A stretch of 63,840 nucleotides of DNA, filler included, from a bacterium (GTDB taxonomy: Bacteria > JADJOY01): NCBI GenBank assembly GCA_046331705.1. It is 4 parts of 4 records of this genome, joined end to end, with 100 filler letters (N's around TTAATTAATTAA, not from the genome) between each part and the next. Parts side by side here need not be neighbours in the genome. Positions count along the whole stretch, not along the records: positions 36,374 to 54,169 come from JAXLQJ010000094.1; 3 more parts are not named here. The stretch is one strand, 5' to 3'. The notes below the pieces were generated by a model, which worked only from the letters and a program-made list of their open reading frames with translations, searched no databases and had not been told where the DNA came from. Shown here one piece after another: positions 6,441 to 54,269 of the stretch. The position numbers were made by a program, and so were the translations under genes. How positions within the stretch are numbered: the first letter of the stretch is position 1; every line of letters starts with the position of its first letter.

Positions 6441-7655
6441 ATGCGCGAGGTCCACGAGCCGCTGATCCTGTCGGTATCCGGTCCCGACCGGCCCGGCATC
6501 CTCGCCGAGCTGGCGGGCATCCTGGCGCGCGGCCAGATCGACCTGGTCGATGTCGAGCAGGCCACGCTCCAGAACTTCCTGGCGCTCTCCTTGCTCGTGG
6601 ATCTCGGCAATCGCCCCGAGCGCGCGCAGGTGATCTTGCGCGAGTTCCTGCCGGCTGCGGCGCGCATGGGCCTCAACGCCGAGGTGCGCGCGATCTCCCA
6701 TCCCGAGCTGCGGATCCTGAAGGAGCAGGACCTGTGGGCGGTGACGCTGATCGGCGAGGCGGCGATCGCGCACATGGTGACGACGGTGGCGGCGGCGACC
6801 GCGCGCCACAACGCCAACATCGTCACGATCCGCAGGCTCGCCGAGCAGGACATCAGCGCCGCCGAGCTGATCGTGGACGTGTCGCGCACCGCCTACGTCG
6901 ACTCCTTCCGCCGCGACCTGCTGAGCGCCTGCGAGGCGGTGGGCATGGACGTGGGGGTCGCGCCCGAGGACGTGCACCGCAAGAGCAAGCGCGTGGTGGT
7001 GATGGACGCCGACTCGACGCTGGTCGCCGGCGAGGTGATCGACGAGCTGGCGCGCCGCGCGGGCGTGGTGGAGAAGGTCGCGGCCATCACCCGTCGCGCG
7101 ATGGAAGGCGAGCTCGACTTCACGGCGGCGCTCACCGAGCGCGTGGCGCTGCTCGCCGGGCTCGGCCGCGCGGACCTGCAGGCGGTCATCGACTCGATGC
7201 GGCTCACGCCCGGCGCCGCCGAGACCATCGCCGTGCTCAAGGCGCTCGGCTTCAAGGTGGGCGTGATCAGCGGCGGCTTCACGTTCTTCACCGACCACCT
7301 GCGCACCACGCTCGGCCTCGACTACGCGTTCGGCAACGTGCTCGAGATGGAAGGCGATCGCCTCACGGGACGCGTGGTGCCGCCGGTGATCGACGCCCAA
7401 GGCAAGGCGGAGCGCGTGCGCCAGATCGCCCGCGAGCTGGGCGTGCCGCTCTCGCAGGTGGTGACCGTGGGCGACGGCGCCAACGACATCCCCATGCTCG
7501 AGACCGCCGGCCTCGGCATCGCGTTTCGCGCCAAGGAAGCGGCGCGGCGCGCGGCGCGCGGCACGATCCAGCGCAACGACATGAAGGCGCTGCTCTACCT
7601 GCTCGGCATCTCGCAGCGGGACGTCCGACGCGTCGCCCGAAAGGACCCGCCATGA
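6441..7655 (+). CDS. serB: Phosphoserine phosphatase with N-terminal ACT domains
   Basis: GPDRPG ACT start; HAD motifs DADST, SGGF, K, GDGAND; GAGGAG RBS. Confidence 0.93.
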   Translation: MREVHEPLILSVSGPDRPGILAELAGILARGQIDLVDVEQATLQNFLALSLLVDLGNRPERAQVILREFLPAAARMGLNAEVRAISHPELRILKEQDLWAVTLIGEAAIAHMVTTVAAATARHNANIVTIRRLAEQDISAAELIVDVSRTAYVDSFRRDLLSACEAVGMDVGVAPEDVHRKSKRVVVMDADSTLVAGEVIDELARRAGVVEKVAAITRRAMEGELDFTAALTERVALLAGLGRADLQAVIDSMRLTPGAAETIAVLKALGFKVGVISGGFTFFTDHLRTTLGLDYAFGNVLEMEGDRLTGRVVPPVIDAQGKAERVRQIARELGVPLSQVVTVGDGANDIPMLETAGLGIAFRAKEAARRAARGTIQRNDMKALLYLLGISQRDVRRVARKDPP

Positions 7656-18148: not shown

Positions 18149-18248
18149 NNNNNNNNNNNNNNNNNNNNNNNNNNNNNNNNNNNNNNNNNNNNTTAATTAA
18201 TTAANNNNNNNNNNNNNNNNNNNNNNNNNNNNNNNNNNNNNNNNNNNN
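18149..18248. other. Artificial contig spacer
   Basis: N-run with central TTAATTAATTAA (stops in all six frames). Confidence 0.98.
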
Positions 18249-36273: not shown

Positions 36274-36373
36274 NNNNNNNNNNNNNNNNNNNNNNNNNNN
36301 NNNNNNNNNNNNNNNNNTTAATTAATTAANNNNNNNNNNNNNNNNNNNNNNNNNNNNNNNNNNNNNNNNNNNN
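36274..36373. other. Artificial contig spacer
   Basis: N-run with TTAATTAATTAA. Confidence 0.98.
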
Positions 36374-36761
36374 ACCCGCCGCCGCAGCTGCCGCAGGCGG
36401 GCGCGCTTCCCGTGGCGTGTTTTCGTGGACAGCCATCGAACTCTCTGCAACCATGGGCCGCTCGAAATCGCCGGGTCTTGGGCCGAGCTCCACGCGGGAC
36501 GTGCTTCGGGAACGCGACGAGCTGCATGCGGTGTGGACCTCTGTCGAGCGAGGTGATTCGGGGAGACGCCGGGGTGTGGGGCGTACGAGGACCTTTCCGA
36601 TGACTCCGCGAACCGTCGGCGATCGGCAACCAGCGCGCGTCACTCGAGCGCCACGTTGCCACGGGAGCTTGGCGGGATCGGCCCGACGAAAGCGGTTCCT
36701 TGCCGCGTCCGGCACGGGCAGGGGCGTCGAACCAACGTTTTTCTCGAGGGGGCGAGCGTTC

Positions 36762-39700
36762 ATGGAAGGTCGGCGATGGATCGCGGTGGTGGGCCTCTTG
36801 TTGGCGACGGGGCTGAGCGCCTGCGGCGGTTCCGATTCTTCGTCGGCCGGCCGCACGTTCACGATCCAGGCTGGCGCGAACGCCACCACCGACATGGTGG
36901 CGGCGATGGTGCAAGCCGCGCCGGGCGACGTGATCCAGTTCGACTGCGGCTACTTCGAGCTGAGCACGACGCTCACGATCATCAACACCGAGGACGTGCG
37001 CATCCGCGGCTGCGGCCGGGACCAGACCGTGCTGTCGTTCCGCGCGGCGAACTCCGCGCAGGGCATTCTCGTCGTCAACGTTCACGGCATCACGATCCAG
37101 GATCTCACCGTCCTGGATTCCGGTGGCAACGGCATCGAGCTGCGTGGCGTCGATCACGGCACGTTGCAGCGCGTGCGAGCGATGTGGTCCTCGGGCGGCG
37201 GCCGCGCCAGCGCGGATCCGATCACCGCAGCCAACTACGCCGAGGACGGCTTCCGGCGGCTCAACGTGCCTTGCACCGAACCGTCGAGCCACAAGCCCGG
37301 TACGCCCGGCGGCGGTGCTTCGCCCGACTACACCATGGACGCGAACAACGGCCGCTATGCGATCTATCCGGTGCTCTCGAAGAACGTCCTGATCGAGGAT
37401 TCCGAGGGCGTCGGCGCCTCGGACGCGGGGATCTACGTCGGCCAGAGCAACGACGCGATCATGCGTCGCAACCGCGCCGTCTACAACCCATTCGGCTTCG
37501 AGATCGAGAACGTCCAGGCTGGTGAGTACGACGGCAATCTCGCCGAGTGCAACACCGGCGGCATGCTGGTCTACGACCTCGACGGGCTCACGCAGTACGG
37601 CGAACGCACCCGCGTGCACGGAAACGTCATCCGCAAGAACAACAGCTACAACGTGGCGACCCATCCGGGCCTGGTGCGGCTGGTGCCGGCGGGCACGGGC
37701 ATCATCACGCTGGGCTACGACCGCATCGACGTCTTCGACAACGAGTTCCGCGACAACGACACGGTCGGCTTTCTGCACATGTCCTATGCGTTGTTTCCGA
37801 AGAGCGACCAGCCCACCGATCGCCGGCTCGACGGCTACAGCGAGGGTGTTCACCTCTTCAAGAACCGCTTCTTCAACAACGGCAACGCGCCGGCGATGCC
37901 GACGCTCGAGGACCTGTCGGGCGGCGACATCATCAAGGCGTTCCCGCTCCTGATGGCCGTCAAGAACCTGGTGGCCTGCGGCAAGTCCGAGAACGCGGGC
38001 GTCTGCGCCGGGGGAAGCGGCCTGCGCGGCGGTCACATCATGTGGGACGGTCTGCTCGACGACTACGATGCCGACTGCCCCTACCCGGTGGACGCAGCAG
38101 GCAATCCCTTGCCGAAGGACGCTCTCGGCAAGCCGATCGAAGGCAACCAGTACCCGAATCCCGCCTGTCACTACAACGCGTACAAGTTCGACACCGCCCG
38201 CGAGGGCGCACCGCGGATCAAGCCCGACTGGGCCGCGTCGTGCATCGACGACGACAACCAGCTGAGCAGCGACAGCCTGCCGTTCGCCAACTTCCACGGG
38301 CTCCAAGGCCTGGAGTGGCTCATCGAATCCCAAGTGGATCCGGGCAAGCCCGAAGCCGTGGCGACGATGCTCGCCAAGGTCGGTCCCGCCGCTTCGACGC
38401 AATTCGCGTCGGACTTCGACATGGCGCCACACCGCTGCGTCGCGCAGTACGGCGCGAACCTGCCGCTCTTGCCGAAAGTGACGATTCCACCGTTCGAGCG
38501 CAGTGGTGACTACGATCCGGCGCCCAGCGCGGCGGAAGTCGCGAAGCGATGCGACGCGAGCGTGCCCGCCGGCCAGGCGAACCACGCCGCCGCGAGCGTC
38601 GACTGTCCGACGCTCGATTCTTACCATTTGTTCTCCGATCCGGAGGATCCGCGCAGCGCACCGAACGGCGGCGTGCCCTGGGTGCTCACCACCAAGCTCT
38701 TCTCCGACTACGCGGTGAAGTACCGCGTCGCCTTCCTGCCTCCGGGTGCGCAGGCGAGCTACAACGACAAGGCCAGCAACGGCGTCGACGCGACGCTGGT
38801 CTTTCCGGTGGGAACGATCCTCGCCAAGACGTTTGCGTTCGCGAACGAGACCACCCACACCGAGACACCGGTGGAGACGCGGCTCTTGATCAAGCGCGTG
38901 ACCTCGAAGGGCCAGGTCCACTGGGACGGCGCGGCCTACGTCTGGAGCACCGACGCCGCCACCGGCAAGCGCGTGGCGAAGCTGGCGCTGGGCGGTGCGA
39001 CGGCCGCGCCGTCCTGGGACTACCACGACGTGGACTCCGGCGTGCGTCACGCTGGCGCCACGCAGCACTACGTGATTCCGAGCCGCGCACAGTGCCTGAC
39101 CTGCCACTCGGCGCAGAACAAGGAGCCCGGCGCTTCGCCGATCGGTCTCAAGGTGCGCTTCATGAACCGGCCCTACGCCGCCGAGTCGAACCTCCAAAGC
39201 GGCCAGAGCGCGCCGGCCATGCTCGGCCAGAACCAGCTCCAGTACTGGTGCAGCCAGGGCGTGCTCGGTGGCTGCCCGGCCGATCTCGGCGTGGACGCGA
39301 CGACACAGATCGCCTCTCACCTGGAGCGCATCCCGGTGTTCAACAAGCCGGGCGATTCCGGTTTCCCGGCCAACTCGCCGCAGGACGTCGAGGCCCGCGC
39401 CCGCGCCTACCTCGAGGTGAACTGCGAGCATTGCCACAGCCCGGGCGGATTCGCCGCCAGCACCGGCCTCTACCTCGATTCCTTCCGCCCGATCGACTCG
39501 AGCTTCGGCATCTGCAAGCAGCCGACCGCGGCCGGTCAGGAGGGCAGCGGGCTACGCACCTACGACATCCAGCCCGGCGCCGCGCACAAGTCGATCCTCG
39601 AGTTCCGGATCAGTCCCGAGGCCACCACGCCGGGCGCCGTGATGCCGCCGCTGGCGCGCAGCGTCGTACACGACGAGGGCCACGAGCTGATCGAGCAATG

Positions 39701-39767
39701 GATCGACGAGGTCGTGACCGCGGACGAGCAGCGCTATCCGGGCTCGACGAGCTGCGCGGGGAAGTGA
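36762..39767 (+). CDS. Lipoprotein: parallel beta-helix domain fused to SO2930-like diheme cytochrome c domain
   Basis: LSAC lipobox; YAIYPV, GASDAGIYVGQS, GFEIEN, NTGGMLVYDL; LFSDYAVKYR, FPVGTILAKTF, ETRLL, CLTCH, ARAYLEVNCEHCH, MPPLARSVVHDEG. Confidence 0.88.
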   Translation: MEGRRWIAVVGLLLATGLSACGGSDSSSAGRTFTIQAGANATTDMVAAMVQAAPGDVIQFDCGYFELSTTLTIINTEDVRIRGCGRDQTVLSFRAANSAQGILVVNVHGITIQDLTVLDSGGNGIELRGVDHGTLQRVRAMWSSGGGRASADPITAANYAEDGFRRLNVPCTEPSSHKPGTPGGGASPDYTMDANNGRYAIYPVLSKNVLIEDSEGVGASDAGIYVGQSNDAIMRRNRAVYNPFGFEIENVQAGEYDGNLAECNTGGMLVYDLDGLTQYGERTRVHGNVIRKNNSYNVATHPGLVRLVPAGTGIITLGYDRIDVFDNEFRDNDTVGFLHMSYALFPKSDQPTDRRLDGYSEGVHLFKNRFFNNGNAPAMPTLEDLSGGDIIKAFPLLMAVKNLVACGKSENAGVCAGGSGLRGGHIMWDGLLDDYDADCPYPVDAAGNPLPKDALGKPIEGNQYPNPACHYNAYKFDTAREGAPRIKPDWAASCIDDDNQLSSDSLPFANFHGLQGLEWLIESQVDPGKPEAVATMLAKVGPAASTQFASDFDMAPHRCVAQYGANLPLLPKVTIPPFERSGDYDPAPSAAEVAKRCDASVPAGQANHAAASVDCPTLDSYHLFSDPEDPRSAPNGGVPWVLTTKLFSDYAVKYRVAFLPPGAQASYNDKASNGVDATLVFPVGTILAKTFAFANETTHTETPVETRLLIKRVTSKGQVHWDGAAYVWSTDAATGKRVAKLALGGATAAPSWDYHDVDSGVRHAGATQHYVIPSRAQCLTCHSAQNKEPGASPIGLKVRFMNRPYAAESNLQSGQSAPAMLGQNQLQYWCSQGVLGGCPADLGVDATTQIASHLERIPVFNKPGDSGFPANSPQDVEARARAYLEVNCEHCHSPGGFAASTGLYLDSFRPIDSSFGICKQPTAAGQEGSGLRTYDIQPGAAHKSILEFRISPEATTPGAVMPPLARSVVHDEGHELIEQWIDEVVTADEQRYPGSTSCAGK

Positions 39768-44716: not shown

Positions 44717-45107
44717 CGGACGCTGCCCGCGAGCGTTCGGCGGGTGCTCCGCGAGCCGCGGGATGAGCCGCAAGGACCCTGAAGTCGTCTTCAGAACCTC
44801 GACGTCAGACGTGGCCACGTCAACCGCCACGCTCCTTAGCCCGACGAACGAGCGAACAGGGAAGTCACGGAACCTCGTGCGCGTCGCTGTTCGCGCGAGG
44901 CGGCGAGCGGCTGCACGAGGTCTGCACGCGGTGCCCGAGCGGAAGCAGCCTGGGGGTAGGCGACGCGACGTCCCGGTCGCAACCGCGTAGAGTCTCGTCT
45001 GACGGCGGCGACGTCGTTGGTCCCAGCGCCTATCGCGATGCCAGCGGCGCGATCACGCCGCCGCCGCTTCATCACGGACGAGCGGACAGCCCGACCGCCG
45101 ACGAAAC

Positions 45108-45995
45108 ATGAGCCGGCTCCCCGACTTCGTCATCATCGGCGCCGCGCGCTGCGGCACCACGTCCCTCCACGCGTACCTGCGCCAGCATCCCGACATCTTC
45201 ATGAGCCGGGAGAAGGAGACCGACTACTTCTCTCTCGGTGACCTGCCGCCGAGCGAGGTTCCGCGGAACGCATCCGCCTACCGTGCGCGCACTCGCGAGG
45301 AGTACGAGCGCCTCTTCCAAGACGCGGGTGACGCGCGCGCGGTGGGCGAGGCGTCGCCGAGCTACCTGTTCTACCCGAGAAGCGCGGCGCGGACGCAGCA
45401 GGCGATCCCGGATGCGAAGCTGATCTGCATCCTGCGCGACCCGGTGGAGCGCGCCTACTCGCACTACGCGCTCGCGCGCAAGATGGGCTTCGAGGCGCGC
45501 ACCGATTTCGAGGCCGCGGTAGCGGCGGAAGACGAGCGCTGGCGGCACGATCGCAGCATGCGCTTCGCCTACACGCGCGCGAGCCTCTATCACGACGGGC
45601 TGCTCGAGTTCTGGAAGCGGTTCGCGCGCGAGCGGATCTTGGTGTTGCTGTTCGAGGAGTTCGCGGCCGACCCCGCGGCGACGATGCGCACCGTCCACAG
45701 GTTCCTGGGGGCCGATGCGAGCCATACGCCAGACGTCAGCATCCGGCACAACCGCTCGATGCTGCCGCGCAGCGCGCTGGTACGCGAGGCGTTCGGCCGC
45801 CCGTTTCGTCTGCGCCGCTTCCTGCAGAGGAACCTGCCGCCGCGGCTCGTGACGCACCTCGGCAATCTTCTGATGCGCCGGCCTCCGGGCGTGGGACCGG
45901 AGGCTCGTGCGCGGCTCCTGCCGCGCTTCGCCGAGGACATCCGCCGGCTCGAGGCGCTCCTCGATCGCGATCTGAGTTGCTGGCGATCGATTTGA
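45108..45995 (+). CDS. PAPS-dependent sulfotransferase
   Basis: PDFVIIGAARCGTTSL (5'-PSB), GEASPSY, LRDPVERAYS (3'-PB). Confidence 0.92.
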   Translation: MSRLPDFVIIGAARCGTTSLHAYLRQHPDIFMSREKETDYFSLGDLPPSEVPRNASAYRARTREEYERLFQDAGDARAVGEASPSYLFYPRSAARTQQAIPDAKLICILRDPVERAYSHYALARKMGFEARTDFEAAVAAEDERWRHDRSMRFAYTRASLYHDGLLEFWKRFARERILVLLFEEFAADPAATMRTVHRFLGADASHTPDVSIRHNRSMLPRSALVREAFGRPFRLRRFLQRNLPPRLVTHLGNLLMRRPPGVGPEARARLLPRFAEDIRRLEALLDRDLSCWRSI

Positions 45996-46072
45996 GCGCG
46001 TCCTCGTCGTATGTTGACCGCCGTCCGAGCGACCGGCGCGGGGATCTCGCCGGTGGCTCGCGTGGAGGGCGA

Positions 46073-46510
46073 ATGGAAGTCCAGAGCTATTGCGTCAACG
46101 AGCCGTCCGTGATCAGCGAGGTGATCGACGGCGAGACCATCGTCCTCAACTTCGACAATGGCCACTACTACAGCTTCAATCCGACCGCCTCGGAGATCTG
46201 GCGGCGGTTGTGCGCGGGTAGCCCGGTCTCGGCGGCGACCGAATGGGTGGCCCGCCGCTTCGCGGCCGACCCGGCCGCCATTCGTCCGGAAGTCGAGGAC
46301 TTCGTCCGTCGTCTCGAGGAGGAGCAGCTGATCCGCCGAGCCGCGAACGATGCGCCCCCGGGATCGACGAACGCGCCCCCGGATGCCAGCCATCCCGTCG
46401 CGGCGTTCTCGTCCCCCGACTTCGAGAAGTTCACCGACATGGAGGAGCTGCTGCTGCTCGATCCGATCCACGAGGTGAGCGACTCAGGCTGGCCACGCAG
46501 GTCCGAGTGA
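46073..46510 (+). CDS. PqqD-family (RiPP recognition element) protein with C-terminal extension
   Basis: EVIDGETIVLN...YYSFNPTASEIW..L...FVRRLEEEQLI; tail FSSPDFEKFTDMEELLLLDPIHEVSDSGWP; GGAGG RBS. Confidence 0.88.
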   Translation: MEVQSYCVNEPSVISEVIDGETIVLNFDNGHYYSFNPTASEIWRRLCAGSPVSAATEWVARRFAADPAAIRPEVEDFVRRLEEEQLIRRAANDAPPGSTNAPPDASHPVAAFSSPDFEKFTDMEELLLLDPIHEVSDSGWPRRSE

Positions 46511-46512
46511 CC

Positions 46513-47214
46513 ATGTCGAGCGGGCGAGCAGCACGCGTTTCCGTCGTGCTCCCGGTCTACGATTGCGAGGCTTACGTCGGGGAGGCCATCGAGAGCGTGC
46601 TCGCACAGACGGTTGCTCCGGACGAGCTGATCGTCGTCGACGATGGCTCCACGGACGCGTCGCTGGCCGTCGTCGAGCGCTTCGCCCGGCCCTCGCTGCA
46701 CGTGATTCGACAGCAAAACGCCGGCATCGGTGCGGCGCGCAATCGTGGGCTTGGCGGCGCGACTGGAGAGCTGATCGCGTTCATCGACGCGGACGACCTC
46801 TGGGAGCGCGACAAGCTCGAGCTGCAGATCGGGGCGCTGCGCCAACGCGACGACCTCCAGCTCGTGTTCGGCCACCTCGTCGAGTTCCTGTCGCCCGACC
46901 GCGCGGCTGAGCTGGGCGGCTCGCTCGAGGTCGGGACCGCTCCGGTACCGGGGTTGATCGCCACGACGTTGCTCGTCCGCCGCACGGCGGTGGAGCGAAT
47001 CGGACCCTTCGACGAGACGCTCGAGGTCGGAGAGTTCGTCGAGTGGATGGCCCGCGCGCGCGACCTCGGGCTCGCGACCCTGTTGCTTCCCCAGATCGTG
47101 GCGCGACGTCGCATCCACGGCGGCAACACGGTGCTGACGCGCTCCAACACCGACTACCTGCGCGCGATCAAGGCGACACTCGACCGCCGCCGCAGAGCCG
47201 CGAATGCCGGCTGA
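46513..47214 (+). CDS. Glycosyltransferase family 2
   Basis: VSVVLPVY, VVDDGSTD, ARNRG, FIDADD. Confidence 0.92.
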   Translation: MSSGRAARVSVVLPVYDCEAYVGEAIESVLAQTVAPDELIVVDDGSTDASLAVVERFARPSLHVIRQQNAGIGAARNRGLGGATGELIAFIDADDLWERDKLELQIGALRQRDDLQLVFGHLVEFLSPDRAAELGGSLEVGTAPVPGLIATTLLVRRTAVERIGPFDETLEVGEFVEWMARARDLGLATLLLPQIVARRRIHGGNTVLTRSNTDYLRAIKATLDRRRRAANAG

Positions 47215-47956
47215 CGCTCGGCCCACGATGCAGCCCACCGTGACGGCGCTCATTCCGGTGTGGAACGGTGCCGCCTTCCTCGCCGAAGCGCTCGCGAGCG
47301 TTCTCTCGCAAGAGCCCGCCGTCGACGAGATCGTGGTGATCGACGATGGCTCGACCGACGGGAGCGGCGACATCGCCCGCGGCTTCGGCCCACGGGTGCG
47401 CTGCGTGCGCCAGGAGAACGGCGGCCTCGCCGCGGCGCGGAACGCAGCGGTCCGCGAAGCGCGGAGCGACTTGATCGCTTTCCTCGACTCGGACGACCTC
47501 TGGCCGCCCGGGCGCCTCGCCGGGCTGCTTCGTGCGCTCGAGGAGAATCCCGACTGTGGGATCGTGCAGGGCCGGCTGCGGCGTTTGGTCCGGAACGAGC
47601 AGACGAAACACTGGGAGCTGGTGAACGAGTCGTGGCGTGCGCCCAACGTCTCGACGGCGCTCATCCGGCGCTCGGTGTTCACGCTCGTCGGTCCGTTCGA
47701 CGCGAGCGTCGCCGGTGGCGACGACGTCGACTGGCTGCTGCGCGCGAAGGAGAGCGGGGTGCGCGAGGCCCACGTCGACGCGATCACGCTCCACTACCGC
47801 CGGCACGACGCCAACATGACGAACGACGTCGCGACGGATCAGTCGAGGTTGATGCGCGTTCTCGGCCGTGCCGTCGCCCGTCGCCGCGCCGCCGCCGCGC
47901 AGCCGCAGCGCGGTGCGACGCCCCAGCCCGCTGTGAAGCCGCGCCAGCGCTCATGA
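47204..47956 (+). CDS. Glycosyltransferase family 2
   Basis: IPVWNG, IDDGSTD, ARN, FLDSDD, YRRH. Start is 47204 or 47228. Confidence 0.92.
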   Translation: MPADARPTMQPTVTALIPVWNGAAFLAEALASVLSQEPAVDEIVVIDDGSTDGSGDIARGFGPRVRCVRQENGGLAAARNAAVREARSDLIAFLDSDDLWPPGRLAGLLRALEENPDCGIVQGRLRRLVRNEQTKHWELVNESWRAPNVSTALIRRSVFTLVGPFDASVAGGDDVDWLLRAKESGVREAHVDAITLHYRRHDANMTNDVATDQSRLMRVLGRAVARRRAAAAQPQRGATPQPAVKPRQRS

Positions 47957-49017
47957 CCGGTGAGAGCTTCGCGGCGGCGCTGCGCTCGCTCGACACCTTC
48001 GCGATGCCCGAGGACGCCTGCGAGCAGCGGCTCGCGATCGCGGGACTGAACATCCGGGTGCGGCTCTCGACTCGGCACCTGGCCGCGAGCGCCCTGCGTG
48101 CGCTCGCGCACCACGCGGTGGCGGAGGACTCGGCACCGGCACCCGACCTGACGGTGCTGGTTCTCGATCGGGAAGCCCCTGGCAATCCGTTGCGCGATCT
48201 CTTCCCCGCTGCGACCAGCGCGCCGGTGGGCGATCGCGTCGAGCGCTGGTCCTACGAAGGCGTTCCGGGGCGCGGACTTCTGCACGAGGGCTTTCGGACG
48301 CTCTTCCTGTGGGACCGCGAGCACCGCCGCGCCGCGGTGTGGCTCGGCGAGGGCGGCGAGCTGCCGTATCACCTCGTCGCCTTGCCGCTGTTACCGATCC
48401 TGAGCTGGGCGTTCGCCGCGCGCGGCTTCGCGGTGGTGCACGCCGCCGCGGTGGCCACGGCGAGTGGAGCGCTGCTGATCGGTGGAAGGTCGGGCACCGG
48501 CAAGTCGACCACGGCGCTCGCCTGCCTGGATGCAGGTCTCGGCTTCCTCGGCGACGACATGTGCGTCATCGAGCCCGGCGATCGGCCCATCGTCCACTCA
48601 CTCTTCTGCTCCGCCAAGCTCGACGCGCCGGATACGGCGCGCTTCCCGGCGCTGTCGCCGGCGCTGGTCGAAGGCTCGGGACCGGGCTGGGAAAAGTCGG
48701 TCTACCTCTTCGACCGCCACCTCGAGCGCGGTGTGGTGCGCGCCGCACCCCTGGCCGGCGTAGCGATTCCGCGGCGCGACGCAGGCCCTGCGGTCCTCCT
48801 CTCGCCACGCCAGGGATTCCTCGCGATGGCGCCGAACACCGCCTTCCAGCTCCCCGGTGCGGCTCTGGCTTCGTGCGCGGGCGTCAAGGAGATCGTGTCG
48901 AAGGTGCCCGTCTCGAGCGTCGGAGTCGGCGAGACCATCGCTGCGATCCCCGCACGGGTGAGCGGCTTCGCGCGCACCCTGTCGCTCTCAGGCGCTTGCG
49001 CAGAGCACCGCGCGTGA
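47953..49017 (+). CDS. HPr-kinase-like P-loop serine kinase
   Basis: VHAAAV, GRSGTGKST Walker A, LGDD; ATGA overlap. Confidence 0.82.
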   Translation: MTGESFAAALRSLDTFAMPEDACEQRLAIAGLNIRVRLSTRHLAASALRALAHHAVAEDSAPAPDLTVLVLDREAPGNPLRDLFPAATSAPVGDRVERWSYEGVPGRGLLHEGFRTLFLWDREHRRAAVWLGEGGELPYHLVALPLLPILSWAFAARGFAVVHAAAVATASGALLIGGRSGTGKSTTALACLDAGLGFLGDDMCVIEPGDRPIVHSLFCSAKLDAPDTARFPALSPALVEGSGPGWEKSVYLFDRHLERGVVRAAPLAGVAIPRRDAGPAVLLSPRQGFLAMAPNTAFQLPGAALASCAGVKEIVSKVPVSSVGVGETIAAIPARVSGFARTLSLSGACAEHRA

Positions 49018-50237
49018 CTCCGTCCGGGCGCCCGTGGCCCCACGGTGTGCGCTGTCGTCCGACGGCGTCTCAAGAGCTGCTGCTGAACGCGTGTCTCGCG
49101 GAGGAGAGCGCTGCGATCGCGGCATGGGAGCGCTGGTGCGCCACCACGGATCTGGATCGTGGCGACGAGGAGTCGTTCCGCCATCTGCCCTTCGCCTGGC
49201 ACCGCCTGCAGAACCGGGTACGCCGAGACCGCACACTCGCGATCGCGAAGGGCGTGTACCGGCAATCCTGGTACCGCAATCAGCTCCTGCTGCGCACGCT
49301 GGGCGGCGTGCTCGATGCGCTCGGGGCCGCAGGGATCGAAGCGATGCTGCTCAAGGGCACGTCGCTGGCGACACGTTACTACCCGAATCCGGCGACCCGG
49401 CCCATGGTCGACATCGACATCCTGGTTCCGCATCCCGCGGCGGAGCGCGCCTTTGCCGTGCTCGCGAGCGACGGCTGGCGACCCGTCAAGCGAACGCCCG
49501 CGAAGGATCTCATCGGCTACGCGCACGCCATCTCCTTCGTGCGCGATCAGACCAACCTCGACCTGCACTGGAACGCGCTCTGGCCGCAGCGCACAGCCGA
49601 CGCGGATCGGCCGTTCTGGCAGGACGCGATCCGCATCGACCACCAGGGGCGCGCGGCGTGGGTTCTCGCCCCGAGCGACGAGCTCTTTCATGCCTGCATG
49701 CACGGCGCCCGCCTCAGCCAGAACGCGTACAGCTGGGCGCCGTTCCGGCTCATCCGCTGGATCACGGATGCCTTCATGATCGCGCGGCGCTCGGACATCG
49801 ACTGGGCGCGGGTCGCTGCGCTCGCCGAGCGCTACCACGCCCGGCTCCACCTGCGCGACGCGTTCCTCTGCCTGCGTCACCTCGGCTTCGCGGTGCCGGA
49901 AGAACTGCTCTCCGAGTGGGCGCAGGTGCGCTCCCCCGCCGACGAGCTGCACTACGAACTGACGCTCACACCGCGGCCGCCCCGCTTCTTCCCTGCGCTG
50001 CCGCGCTTCCGCTTCTGGAAGAGCTACCGGATGAAGACGTACATCGAGCAGGACGCGAACGGCGGTGCCGGGCAGGCGTGCCTGGCGGAACGGCTCGCTG
50101 GCTTCGCCCCGTACCTGGTCGCCTTCGTCAAGGTGGACCTCGACGCGGCGCGCCTGCGCGATGTGCCCGTCAACCTCGCGCGCAAGCTCGCCGGCCGGCC
50201 GTCGTTGCTGCGGCCCTGGGAGCCTGTCGGGCACTAG
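49014..50237 (+). CDS. Nucleotidyltransferase family protein (NTP_transf_5-like)
   Basis: LLKG..LA..YY....RPMVDIDILV, LDLHW, RWITD, IDW; GTGA overlap. Confidence 0.88.
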   Translation: MTPSGRPWPHGVRCRPTASQELLLNACLAEESAAIAAWERWCATTDLDRGDEESFRHLPFAWHRLQNRVRRDRTLAIAKGVYRQSWYRNQLLLRTLGGVLDALGAAGIEAMLLKGTSLATRYYPNPATRPMVDIDILVPHPAAERAFAVLASDGWRPVKRTPAKDLIGYAHAISFVRDQTNLDLHWNALWPQRTADADRPFWQDAIRIDHQGRAAWVLAPSDELFHACMHGARLSQNAYSWAPFRLIRWITDAFMIARRSDIDWARVAALAERYHARLHLRDAFLCLRHLGFAVPEELLSEWAQVRSPADELHYELTLTPRPPRFFPALPRFRFWKSYRMKTYIEQDANGGAGQACLAERLAGFAPYLVAFVKVDLDAARLRDVPVNLARKLAGRPSLLRPWEPVGH

Positions 50238-50359
50238 CTCCGGCGACGAGGTTGGGACGAGTCCCCGTCGTCCTCGCGTCGCTGCGAGCGCCGACGCCTG
50301 GTTGGAAGGAAACAATCCGCAGCGCTGACGCTATCGTCCGCGGCATCGCCAGCGACTGG

Positions 50360-50578
50360 ATCATCGGCCCGATCCGGCACGAGGTGCGGTCCGGAGTGCG
50401 GGCCACCGACGTGTTCGATCGGCTCCGCCATCACCCTGCTGGCTTCGATTGCATCGCAGTCGCATTGGACGACGACGACCAAGCCGCGCGCTTCTACAAC
50501 ACGTTGCGTTCGGCGGGCGTAGCGGGTAGCGCCGTCGACTCGCTGACCTGCTCCGTGGCAAGCCGGGCCGACGTCCCT
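50360..50578 (+). pseudogene. PIN-domain (VapC-type) toxin fragment
   Basis: IIGPIRHEVRSG...AARFYNTLRSAGVAGSAVDSLTCSVA; no N-terminal DT motif, no C-terminal TxD motif, no start codon. Confidence 0.7.
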
Positions 50579-50651
50579 GCGCGGCTACATCCGGCAGGCG
50601 ACGGTGTTCGAAGAGAACGCCGCGGTGGCAATCGTCCACCCGCGCGCCTGA
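50577..50651 (+). mobile_element. Tyrosine recombinase 3'-end remnant, copy A
   Basis: Reads LRGYIRQATVFEENAAVAIVHPRA*; 44/48 nt identical to 51483-51530. Confidence 0.7.
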
Positions 50652-50685
50652 TGGAGTTCGCGGCACCGTGCTAGGGTCACGAGCC

Positions 50686-50769
50686 ATGAGTTCGTTGTTG
50701 CTGGTACTCGGTGCCTACTACGTCGTGCTCTTTCTCGCCACGAAGGCGCTCGTGGAGGACGACCGATGA
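50686..50769 (+). CDS. Small single-TM protein (27 aa)
   Basis: MSSLLLVLGAYYVVLFLATKALVEDDR*; ATGA overlap with the next gene. Confidence 0.45.
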   Translation: MSSLLLVLGAYYVVLFLATKALVEDDR

Positions 50770-51356
50770 TCGCCGGTCACTACGCCACGGCGCTCATTCC
50801 CAAGGCGCGCTCGCCCGAGCTTCCGATCGCCTGGCTCCTGCTGGCGGCCAACTTCCCGGACTTCGTGTGGGTTGCCCTCGGCTTCGCGGGCATCGAGACA
50901 CCTCATCCGGTGTCCATCCTCGACGCCACGTTCGCCAACATCCGCGTGCGCATGACCTTCAGCCACGACGTGCTGCCGATTCTCGTCCATTCCGCCGCGT
51001 TCGCCGCCGTCGTGCTGCTCGCGGGTCGGGGGCGGCGGCTCGCCGCTTGGTGCGCCGCGCTGGTCGTGCTGCACCTGGGCTGCGACCTCGTCTCGGGTTT
51101 CGAGCACCATCTGTGGGGACCGGGCTCGCCGTCGATCGGGCTCGACACCTACGGTCGCGCCCCCCACGTGGCGCTGCTGATCGAGGCGATGACGTCGTTC
51201 GCCTGTGTCTTCTACTACGATCGCTCGTGCCGCGAGCGCGGGCGTCCACTCTCCCGCGGTCGCCGGCTCGGGCTATACGGGGTGCTCGTGGGCGGAGTCG
51301 TGGTGTGGCTCCCCACGGCGACGATGTCCCTCGCACGGATTCTCGGGCTGCACTGA
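50766..51356 (+). CDS. Membrane protein, putative metal-dependent hydrolase (YdjM-like)
   Basis: GH at N-terminus, PD, SH and H...D motifs within TM segments. Confidence 0.7.
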   Translation: MIAGHYATALIPKARSPELPIAWLLLAANFPDFVWVALGFAGIETPHPVSILDATFANIRVRMTFSHDVLPILVHSAAFAAVVLLAGRGRRLAAWCAALVVLHLGCDLVSGFEHHLWGPGSPSIGLDTYGRAPHVALLIEAMTSFACVFYYDRSCRERGRPLSRGRRLGLYGVLVGGVVVWLPTATMSLARILGLH

Positions 51357-54169: not shown

Positions 54170-54269
54170 NNNNNNNNNNNNNNNNNNNNNNNNNNNNNNN
54201 NNNNNNNNNNNNNTTAATTAATTAANNNNNNNNNNNNNNNNNNNNNNNNNNNNNNNNNNNNNNNNNNNN
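54170..54269. other. Artificial contig spacer
   Basis: N-run with TTAATTAATTAA. Confidence 0.98.

Follow-up and report, generated by a model that had tools for sequence, protein, structure and literature searches.

A six-gene cassette pairing a tailed PqqD-family protein with an HprK-like kinase, found without lasso peptide machinery

Kinases that work with a recognition element for ribosomally synthesised and post-translationally modified peptides (RiPP recognition element, RRE) have been described for both linear and lasso peptides. Linear polyphosphorylated peptides (LPPs) of Bacillota have been shown experimentally to arise, with no cyclase involved, from the joint action of an RRE, a kinase of the HprK type and an NTP transferase (Popov et al., Nat Commun May 2026; PMC13381572). 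These lppA-K-B-S-D-N clusters encode an SpI-like (archaeal-type) peptidase, LppS, an MsbA-like pump, LppD, and precursors with the motif YxxPxVLxHQxIxFETxxS; the kinase LppK polyphosphorylates Ser3 of the precursor LppA, the transferase LppN was inactive in a heterologous host, and the authors call LPPs restricted to Bacillota (PMC13381572). Among lasso peptides, kinase, nucleotidyltransferase and sulfotransferase genes accompany some biosynthetic clusters (PMC8498205), an iterative glycosyltransferase has been found to act on a lasso peptide (PMC11912497), and PsmN is required for the addition of one or two hexoses to the phospho-Ser of phospho-pseudomycoidin, its D134A/D136A mutant being inactive (PMC6993621). 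Here, we analyze six co-oriented genes at positions 45108–50237 of the window, that is, the whole stretch of 63,840 nt taken from assembly GCA_046331705.1. They encode a sulfotransferase, a PqqD/RRE protein with a conserved C-terminal tail (hereafter the hub protein), two family 2 glycosyltransferases (GT2a and GT2b), an HprK-like P-loop kinase and a nucleotidyltransferase of family PF14907. On balance, these genes are probably an accessory cassette that is complete in itself and acts on a ribosomally made peptide or protein, with no need of lasso machinery, as a relative of the LPP systems outside Bacillota. The original prediction had offered such a cyclase-free system as a candidate new one, but the concept is already published for the LPPs of Bacillota (PMC13381572). 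What remains new is the tailed, apparently self-liganded RRE with its kinase, the presence of GT2 genes in the conserved core, the lack of a protease and of a separate precursor, and the wide, patchy distribution. A literature search did not find the fused RRE-tail architecture described, although the supplements of PMC13381572, which may list non-Bacillota or fused forms, lay outside that search. Two papers mention RRE-glycosyltransferase fusions and not this module (PMC12710340, PMC7470986), and another lists the ordinary lasso gene set only (PMC10040529).

All six genes lie on the plus strand, their reading frames are open and backed by third-position GC, and the gene order, family calls and junctions proposed in the original prediction were exactly reproduced: consecutive genes are joined by a gap of 77 nt, a gap of 2 nt, an overlap of 11 nt, an ATGA overlap of 4 nt and a GTGA overlap of 4 nt. 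The first gene (45108–45995, ATG start, TGA stop) encodes a 295-aa sulfotransferase (Pfam Sulfotransfer_3, 9e-21; Sulfotransfer_1, 1.3e-17) with an N-terminal GAARCGTTS loop, which binds 3'-phosphoadenosine-5'-phosphosulfate (PAPS) in such enzymes, and an RDP motif. The 77-nt spacer that follows (45996–46072) carries a Shine-Dalgarno sequence, GGAGG, at 46064–46068, before the RRE gene, and is too short to hold a precursor gene. The hub protein (46073–46510, 145 aa; Pfam PqqD, 6.8e-15, residues 21–87) is followed by GT2a (46513–47214, 233 aa; Glycos_transf_2, 3.9e-31; DDGS and DADD motifs) and GT2b (47204–47956, 250 aa; Glycos_transf_2, 1.9e-34; DDGS and DSDD motifs), which share the 11-nt overlap, and then by the kinase (47953–49017, 354 aa), with its P-loop at residues 178–185 (48484–48507), and the PsmN/LppN-type nucleotidyltransferase (49014–50237, 407 aa; NTP_transf_5, 7.2e-40). 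Both GT2 enzymes are predicted to be soluble, with a maximum 19-residue hydropathy of 1.34 for GT2a, and no clear membrane helix was found in any of the six proteins, the highest 19-residue value being 1.82, in the strand before the kinase P-loop. None of the six reaches the cut-off of any NCBIfam model; the best partial matches of GT2a, with cut-offs unmet, are PRK10073 and MftF.

The hub protein is made up of an RRE domain (residues 1–90, 46073–46342), a variable, low-complexity linker without conserved columns (residues 91–110, 46343–46402) and a tail (residues 111–145 plus the stop codon, 46403–46510) that reads F112xxP115xF117-EKFTDMEELLLLDPIHEV-xxx-GWP141 before a variable end. The AlphaFold2 (AF2) model has a per-residue confidence (pLDDT) of 80 at residues 1–10 and of 89–96 at residues 11–90, drops to a mean of about 53 in the linker, and returns to 93 at residues 111–120, with a strand at 117–120. 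The RRE is, by its model, a lasso-B1-like winged helix: Foldseek matched it to TbiB1 (5v1u, 5v1v) with TM scores of 0.89–0.90 and also to the lasso B1 structure 6jx3, and its profile matched TbiB1 (6.6e-17), PbaB1 (5e-13), TfuB1 (5.5e-8) and LppB (9x8z, 1.4e-6) in the PDB, whereas against the NCBIfam lasso PqqD models it scored 42.1 and 38.9 bits, under the cut-offs of 70 and 80. TbiB1 and TfuB1 (5v1u, 5v1v, 6jx3; target-normalised TM 0.85–0.90), solved with leader bound, thus share the winged-helix fold, but they are proteins of about 85–100 aa that take their leader in trans, whereas the hub protein adds 55 residues that include a built-in leader-like motif.

Across 73 homologues, the tail follows the consensus [FY]112xxP115x[LF]EK[FY]TDMxxLLLLDPIHEVxxxGWP141, then a variable end, with P115, L127, L128, D130, P131, I132, V135, G139, W140 and P141 invariant, and in the alignment it is conserved far better than the RRE domain itself. 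Its start fits the recognition motif [Y/W]xxPx[L/V/I/F/A] given for lasso and LPP leaders in PMC13381572. Lasso clusters have a separate precursor, with a YxxPxL leader and Asp or Glu at position 7–9 of the core; here a separate precursor gene was not found, and the fused tail comprises [FY]xxPx[LF], the invariant Asp130 and nine residues from motif to Thr. This motif-to-Thr spacing is presumably shorter than that in lasso leaders. The tail motif occurs once in the host genome. A word-limited search of 5.8 billion proteins for stand-alone tails returned, under 79 aa, a single 74-aa partial PqqD protein, with the reservation that gene callers miss very short ORFs; an equally word-limited search for longer tail fusions gave none among proteins over 254 aa. 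Two specific readings of the tail were set aside: T121 as the main phosphorylation site, given the V, N and D variants at this position, and the tail as a fossil lasso precursor, with T121 at position -2 and Asp130 as core position 8, given the misfit of the motif-to-Thr spacing and the lack of a cyclase.

Set against the LPP clusters, the cassette shares the discrete RRE (LppB, 1.4e-6), an HprK-like kinase (a likeness at the level of family) and a PF14907 NTP transferase, as well as a [Y/W]xxP-type recognition motif and a frequent setting among glycosyltransferase and polysaccharide genes. Unlike those clusters, it has neither an SpI-like leader peptidase nor a separate precursor with YxxPxVLxHQxIxFETxxS; its recognition-like motif is instead fused to the RRE and is followed by an invariant 20-residue segment without a conserved Ser. 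It further differs in having GT2 genes in its conserved core, plus a sulfotransferase, in lacking the MsbA-like exporter in the window, which is present in 27 of 80 related loci, in its occurrence in at least 12 phyla by record titles, and in an RRE profile that scores higher on lasso B1 (TbiB1, 6.6e-17) than on LppB. With the paeninodin and pseudomycoidin lasso clusters (PadeK/PsmK, PsmN), it shares the B1-type RRE, the kinase and the PF14907 family, a sulfotransferase being present in some of them; it differs from these in the absence of the cyclase, the B2 peptidase and a separate precursor, hence no lariat. The acceptor in paeninodin and pseudomycoidin is a C-terminal Ser, whereas the end of the hub protein's tail is variable and often lacks Ser.

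The same gene set recurs beside RRE homologues in most of 80 related loci and in many phyla, so that the operon cannot be put down to chance. These loci, kept with up to 10 kb per side, were found through the tail motif, and partners were counted by tblastn with the window proteins (E ≤1e-8), except for exporters, which were counted by ORF clustering. The kinase is encoded in 69 of the 80 loci (38 of the 43 with at least 6 kb on both sides), the nucleotidyltransferase in 52 (32 of 43), at least one GT2 in 62 (36 of 43) and at least two in 49, an ABC_membrane-type exporter in 27 (20 of 43), and the sulfotransferase in 14 (9 of 43), including all five nearest relatives, L016–L020. Kinase, nucleotidyltransferase and GT2 occur together in 45 loci (29 of 43), so the neighbourhood comparison favoured the association that had been proposed, with a lasso cyclase in 0/80. 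Where the kinase was not adjacent, in the five loci checked, four genomes encode a kinase of the family elsewhere (E ≤5e-91). In a wider sample, 308 of 355 candidates are relatives of the hub protein with about its length, and of 488 pattern matches in contigs from one genome per species, 462 encode an RRE relative. By record titles, the 80 loci come from at least 12 phyla, including Binatia, Chloroflexota, Cyanobacteria, Acidobacteriota, Alpha- and Gammaproteobacteria, Desulfobacterota, Verrucomicrobiota, Nitrospirota, Methylomirabilota, Actinomycetota, Bacteroidota and Bipolaricaulota. In blastn comparisons (tblastx of the contig against the relatives gave high-GC noise only and was replaced), nucleotide identity to the five nearest relatives, 74.8–88.1%, is confined to 45101–50218 and the flanks are unrelated; judged by these boundaries, the cassette is apparently a discrete, mobile six-gene unit. 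Within its phylum, the kinase-family profile found matches in the host genome and in one of five others, and in none of four genomes of the same genus (74–90% complete).

Searches of the rest of the genome likewise bore out a pathway without lasso cyclase or B2 peptidase. In the host assembly (8.17 Mb, 118 contigs, 95.7% complete, 2.6% contaminated), the B2 peptidase family PF13471 had no match; the lasso-cyclase cut-off of 525 bits was never reached, the five Asn_synthase proteins scoring 169–252 bits and all passing the asparagine-synthase cut-off; and the hub gene was the sole match to PF05402 (PqqD). The pqqA, pqqB, pqqC and pqqE families have no member on the contig that carries the cassette, C94, pqq genes other than PqqD and radical SAM enzymes not having been searched for genome-wide. 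Around the relatives, a cyclase was found in none of the 80 loci, the lone AsnB-profile match being GlmS, and a phmmer search of the loci for B2, with a single seed and thus weaker than the Pfam-based genome search, matched only the seed itself. PF13471 was unmatched in 29 of 50 relatives' genomes taken from the 80 loci, which is no proof of absence because most of these are metagenome-assembled genomes (MAGs), and has a match somewhere in the other 21. A separate case is locus L028 (Oscillatoria sp. PCC 10802), where a lasso B2 gene and a tail-less 107-aa B1 (2–713) are found on the opposite strand, 10 kb upstream of the module; glutamine synthetase, phycobilisome and GTPase genes stand in between. 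Both kinds of RRE are thus present in one genome.

A separate peptide substrate was sought in several ways. Clustering of 1042 non-overlapping small ORFs (18–100 aa) from the 80 loci yielded families only between two near-identical cyanobacterial loci, and a comparison by eye of 600 nt on each side of the cassette between the window and L016–L020 revealed nothing in common. Strict and loose patterns of the LPP precursor motif gave no matches in the 80 loci and C94; with the loosest pattern, 11 of the 12 matches listed were the hub tails themselves. An MsbA-like or other ABC exporter is absent from the cassette and from C94; no leader peptidase was found, all six cassette genes belonging to other families and no S24 or S26 peptidase appearing among the annotated recurrent neighbour clusters of the relatives; and an initiating phosphoglycosyl transferase, a flippase or ABC-2 transporter and a polymerase were found neither in the cassette nor on C94.

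The assignment of the kinase was strengthened by its catalytic residues. Across 56 homologues, H163, the P-loop G181-x-G183-K184-S185 and D202 are invariant and D201 is present in at least 90%, and the kinase-family profile matches solved HprK/P structures (1jb1, 4.3e-6) across the P-loop and the DD motif. The P-loop and following DD motif of HprK/P thus align with the cassette kinase, but the alignment spans only about 50 residues, and the N- and C-terminal parts of the cassette kinase are unrelated by sequence. The nucleotidyltransferase carries the G-[ST]...DxD motif (KGTS...VDIDILV), and its AF2 model (pLDDT 89.9) has a Pol-beta nucleotidyltransferase fold, matched by Foldseek to MenT1, ANT(2'')-Ia (5cfs/4xje), LnuA and FKRP; PsmN was modelled as ANT(2'')-like, and the ANT(2'') entries are the same (PMC6993621). 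The host genome has a second PF14907 gene (G000:C24:38338-39516, minus strand; locus L099 8338–9516; 1.2e-38) with no RRE or HprK-like gene nearby, its neighbours encoding a TupA-like ATP-grasp protein, an APH-type phosphotransferase, a UDP-glycosyltransferase and a methyltransferase, so that in this genome the family also works outside RRE contexts.

Structure prediction for the kinase and the hub protein together gave a complex score of 0.74, compared with 0.02 for the best of three controls; 116 of 157 solved complexes attain this level, as do 2 of 215 mismatched pairs, a calibration that is approximate here, since our own alignments were used. The score expresses the confidence of a model and is no measurement. 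The runs share at least 96% of contacts, with a partner pLDDT of at least 77. In the prediction, kinase residues 284–316, 95–103 and the P-loop residue 179 contact one face of the RRE sheet (residues 11–34) and tail residues 120–137, such that the RRE beta-sheet and the tail are predicted to dock on the C-terminal helices of the kinase, beside the P-loop. RREs hold leader peptides beside strand beta-3, and tail residue F120 and the beta-3 residues 32 and 34 share the kinase partners 290 and 294; through these common contacts, the tail strand is read, indirectly, as adjoining beta-3.

The chemical order of the original prediction, with Ser phosphorylation, transfer of nucleoside monophosphate (NMP) or sugar phosphate, GT2 elongation and sulfation, is inferred from family membership. 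The leader-like part of the tail would lie in the peptide groove of its own RRE, giving a single-chain RRE and pseudo-precursor; the kinase would phosphorylate a hydroxyl on an acceptor presented by the hub-kinase complex; the PF14907 enzyme would add a sugar, sugar phosphate or NMP to that phosphate, as PsmN does in pseudomycoidin; and the two soluble GT2 enzymes would extend a glycan that the sulfotransferase could sulfate from PAPS. As to the acceptor, a hub protein that primes itself, with its tail or C-terminus as the scaffold, is a serious candidate that falls somewhat short of an even chance; a peptide or protein encoded elsewhere would be a minor possibility, a non-peptide acceptor equally so, and something else takes up the remainder. 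The hub protein may serve as a glycan primer, with the leader-like tail and the failure to find a separate precursor speaking for it. In a bolder version, which we regard as doubtful, the hub protein would unite recognition element, leader and core in one chain, its tail carrying a cytoplasmic, phosphate-linked, GT2-extended and sulfated glycan in a protein-primed, lipid-free pathway spread horizontally through a dozen phyla. If true, the invariance of the tail would reflect its recognition by every enzyme of the pathway, as in carrier proteins or the precursors of pyrroloquinoline quinone (PQQ) and mycofactocin.

Several results weigh against these proposals. The tail has no invariant phosphate-accepting residue: Ser is absent from 23 of the 73 tails, which leaves the tail a candidate acceptor, and beyond D122 Ser is missing from 33 of 73 and both Ser and Thr from 17, leaving the primer without a conserved Ser. 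Residue 121 is T in 67 tails, S in 2, V in 2, N in 1 and D in 1. In the LPP system, LppK took neither Thr nor Tyr at its site (PMC13381572); together with the lack of an invariant hydroxyl, this means that the tail may be a docking arm instead of an acceptor. The binding of the tail in the RRE groove in cis is suggested by indirect signs in the predicted complex. The kinase itself scores below cut-off for both Pfam and NCBIfam models: Hpr_kinase_C at 6.4e-4 and 19.7 bits (cut-off 33.3), HprK_rel_B at 4e-8, and HprK-related kinase A, kinase B and HPr(Ser) kinase at 32.8, 27.7 and 21.5 bits (cut-offs 200, 200 and 240). Because LppN was inactive heterologously, pseudomycoidin is the single precedent for PF14907-type chemistry. 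With neither a protease nor an exporter in the cassette of the window, there is no visible route to a released product. Several relatives lie among ordinary polysaccharide genes (Bac_transf, Wzy_C, GT4, epimerases), which would also fit a glycan pathway. Finally, loci found through the tail motif cannot show how frequent the kinase family is without a tailed RRE.

Some of these points fit an LPP-type pathway with a trans substrate, in which a precursor peptide or protein encoded elsewhere would be phosphorylated and glycosylated, the tailed RRE would be an adapter or activator of the kinase, its tail perhaps an autoinhibitory pseudo-leader displaced by the real one, and a housekeeping peptidase and pump would finish the product. 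The tail's lack of a conserved Ser is in line with this, as are the LPP precedent of a separate precursor gene with an RRE that serves the enzymes (PMC13381572), the genome-wide pairing of kinase and RRE even where unlinked (four of five cases) and a predicted tail contact that lies beside the active site and not clearly inside it, with P-loop residue 179 alone listed and not D201 or D202. The cassette, however, moves as exactly six genes between unrelated flanks, so that a specific trans substrate would not travel along with it; the 80 loci offered no conserved small ORF and, like C94, no LPP-like motif; the tail motif is found only once in the host genome; and the RRE groove appears, if indirectly and from the model, to be filled in cis. 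We consider a trans substrate unlikely, and the self-contained cassette stays the favoured explanation.

A pathway to a glycan, glycolipid or small glycoside without any peptide acceptor, in which the kinase and nucleotidyltransferase would act on a sugar, decorating or activating it, the GT2 enzymes and sulfotransferase would build a sulfated oligosaccharide and the RRE-tail protein would be a regulatory or scaffolding subunit, would be in keeping with the neighbours of the module: GT2 in 68 of 80 loci when counted by ORF clustering and GT4 in 14, epimerases, methyltransferases, sulfotransferases, Bac_transf, Wzy_C and polysaccharide deacetylase, ABC_membrane-type exporters in 27 loci, GlmU and GlmS directly upstream in L029, and the second PF14907 gene without RRE, adjoining a UDP-glycosyltransferase and a phosphotransferase. 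Yet RREs bind peptides by virtue of their fold, and every one of the nearest solved structures to this one belongs to a RiPP protein; experiments have established peptides as substrates of both the HprK-like and the PF14907 family (PMC13381572 and PMC6993621); and the cassette lacks an initiating phosphoglycosyl transferase, a flippase and a polymerase and encodes no membrane protein, so we take this route to be quite improbable. It is scarcely credible that the six genes are stray tailoring functions of a normal lasso cluster, with the cyclase, peptidase and precursor located on a different contig. Each of the families does accompany paeninodin- or pseudomycoidin-type clusters (PMC8498205), the assembly is in 118 pieces, a PF13471 gene is present in 21 of 50 relatives' genomes, and a B1/B2 pair lies 10 kb away in L028. 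Against this stand a host genome that is 95.7% complete with no PF13471, no protein at lasso-cyclase level and one PqqD-domain gene, the 29 of 50 relatives' genomes without PF13471, the lack of a cyclase in all 80 loci, and the position of the L028 lasso genes on the opposite strand, behind glutamine synthetase, phycobilisome and GTPase genes.

The surroundings of the module vary among its relatives. Recurrent neighbours in the 80 loci include GT4, epimerases, methyltransferases, further sulfotransferases, Bac_transf and Wzy_C. In L029 (6653–9919), the tailed RRE is immediately preceded by GlmU-like and GlmS genes in the same orientation; GlmU and GlmS supply UDP-N-acetylglucosamine (UDP-GlcNAc). 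Two PF14907 genes flank the module in some cyanobacterial loci (L025, 5996–7234 and 11556–12608). In the Chloroploca loci (L082, 10620–18129), the gene order is RRE, nucleotidyltransferase, ABC exporter, epimerase, FkbM methyltransferase and a 680-aa sulfotransferase. In two Thermoflexales MAGs (L042, 8183–12354; L073, 4976–9140), a ParA/MinD-type P-loop protein (546–548 aa) precedes the tailed RRE and an ABC exporter comes directly after it, with the kinase on another contig, such that the tail is invariant without an adjacent kinase; in L073, AMP-binding and carrier-domain genes continue downstream. In L017 (about 6900–7400) and L020 (2854–3348), the cassette is flanked by a similar membrane protein of 164 aa, on the downstream side in one locus and on the upstream side in the other; the window lacks it. 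Near-identical DNA (66–97% of sampled words) was detected in activated-sludge, digester and wastewater metagenomes from about ten studies, and the assembly may stem from one of these. In three metatranscriptome runs, drawn from two studies, contigs of 129–250 nt with 0–3 differences each cover the spacer and RRE start, the GT2a/GT2b and GT2b/kinase junctions, the kinase and the nucleotidyltransferase. Because they leave the greater part of the operon bare and may reflect DNA carry-over, these matches were not counted as expression.

The window joins four contigs, C92 (1–18148), C93 (18249–36273), C94 (36374–54169) and C104 (54270–63840), through spacers of N at 18149–18248, 36274–36373 and 54170–54269. 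The original prediction's statements about a single contig thus hold for C94, on which the whole operon lies, and not for the window as one contig; physical linkage to the operon extends no further than 8.7 kb upstream and 3.9 kb downstream, and ORFs that seem to cross spacers (e.g., 36330–39767) begin artificially because the linkage across spacers is not real. The linked neighbours on C94 are unrelated to the cassette: a beta-helix protein, an MpaB/Lcp-like oxygenase, a glyoxalase, a carboxylesterase, an unassigned membrane protein and a DUF4034 protein. Downstream lie, on the plus strand, a weaker 138-aa frame (50258–50674) and a hydrophobic 196-aa protein (50766–51356) with a strong coding signal and no Pfam match, neither of them conserved beside the relatives' cassettes. 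A promoter scan found no sites and terminator-like sites numbered 4 against 2.0 expected, none of them informative.

RREs are usually seen as adapters that read the leader of a peptide encoded by a separate precursor gene. In this family, the RRE itself carries a leader-like motif, and the segment behind it is nearly unchanged across cyanobacteria, Chloroflexota, Acidobacteriota, Proteobacteria and this sludge bacterium. Should the tail be the substrate, the cassette would represent a new logic of peptide or protein glycosylation, primed by phosphate instead of lipid; if it is a docking arm, the RRE would have been turned into a fixed subunit of a kinase. In several hundred genomes, the annotation "PqqD family protein" hides this module, which would take LPP-type chemistry far beyond Bacillota and give the uncharacterised PF14907 enzymes a compact, all-soluble test system of six genes.

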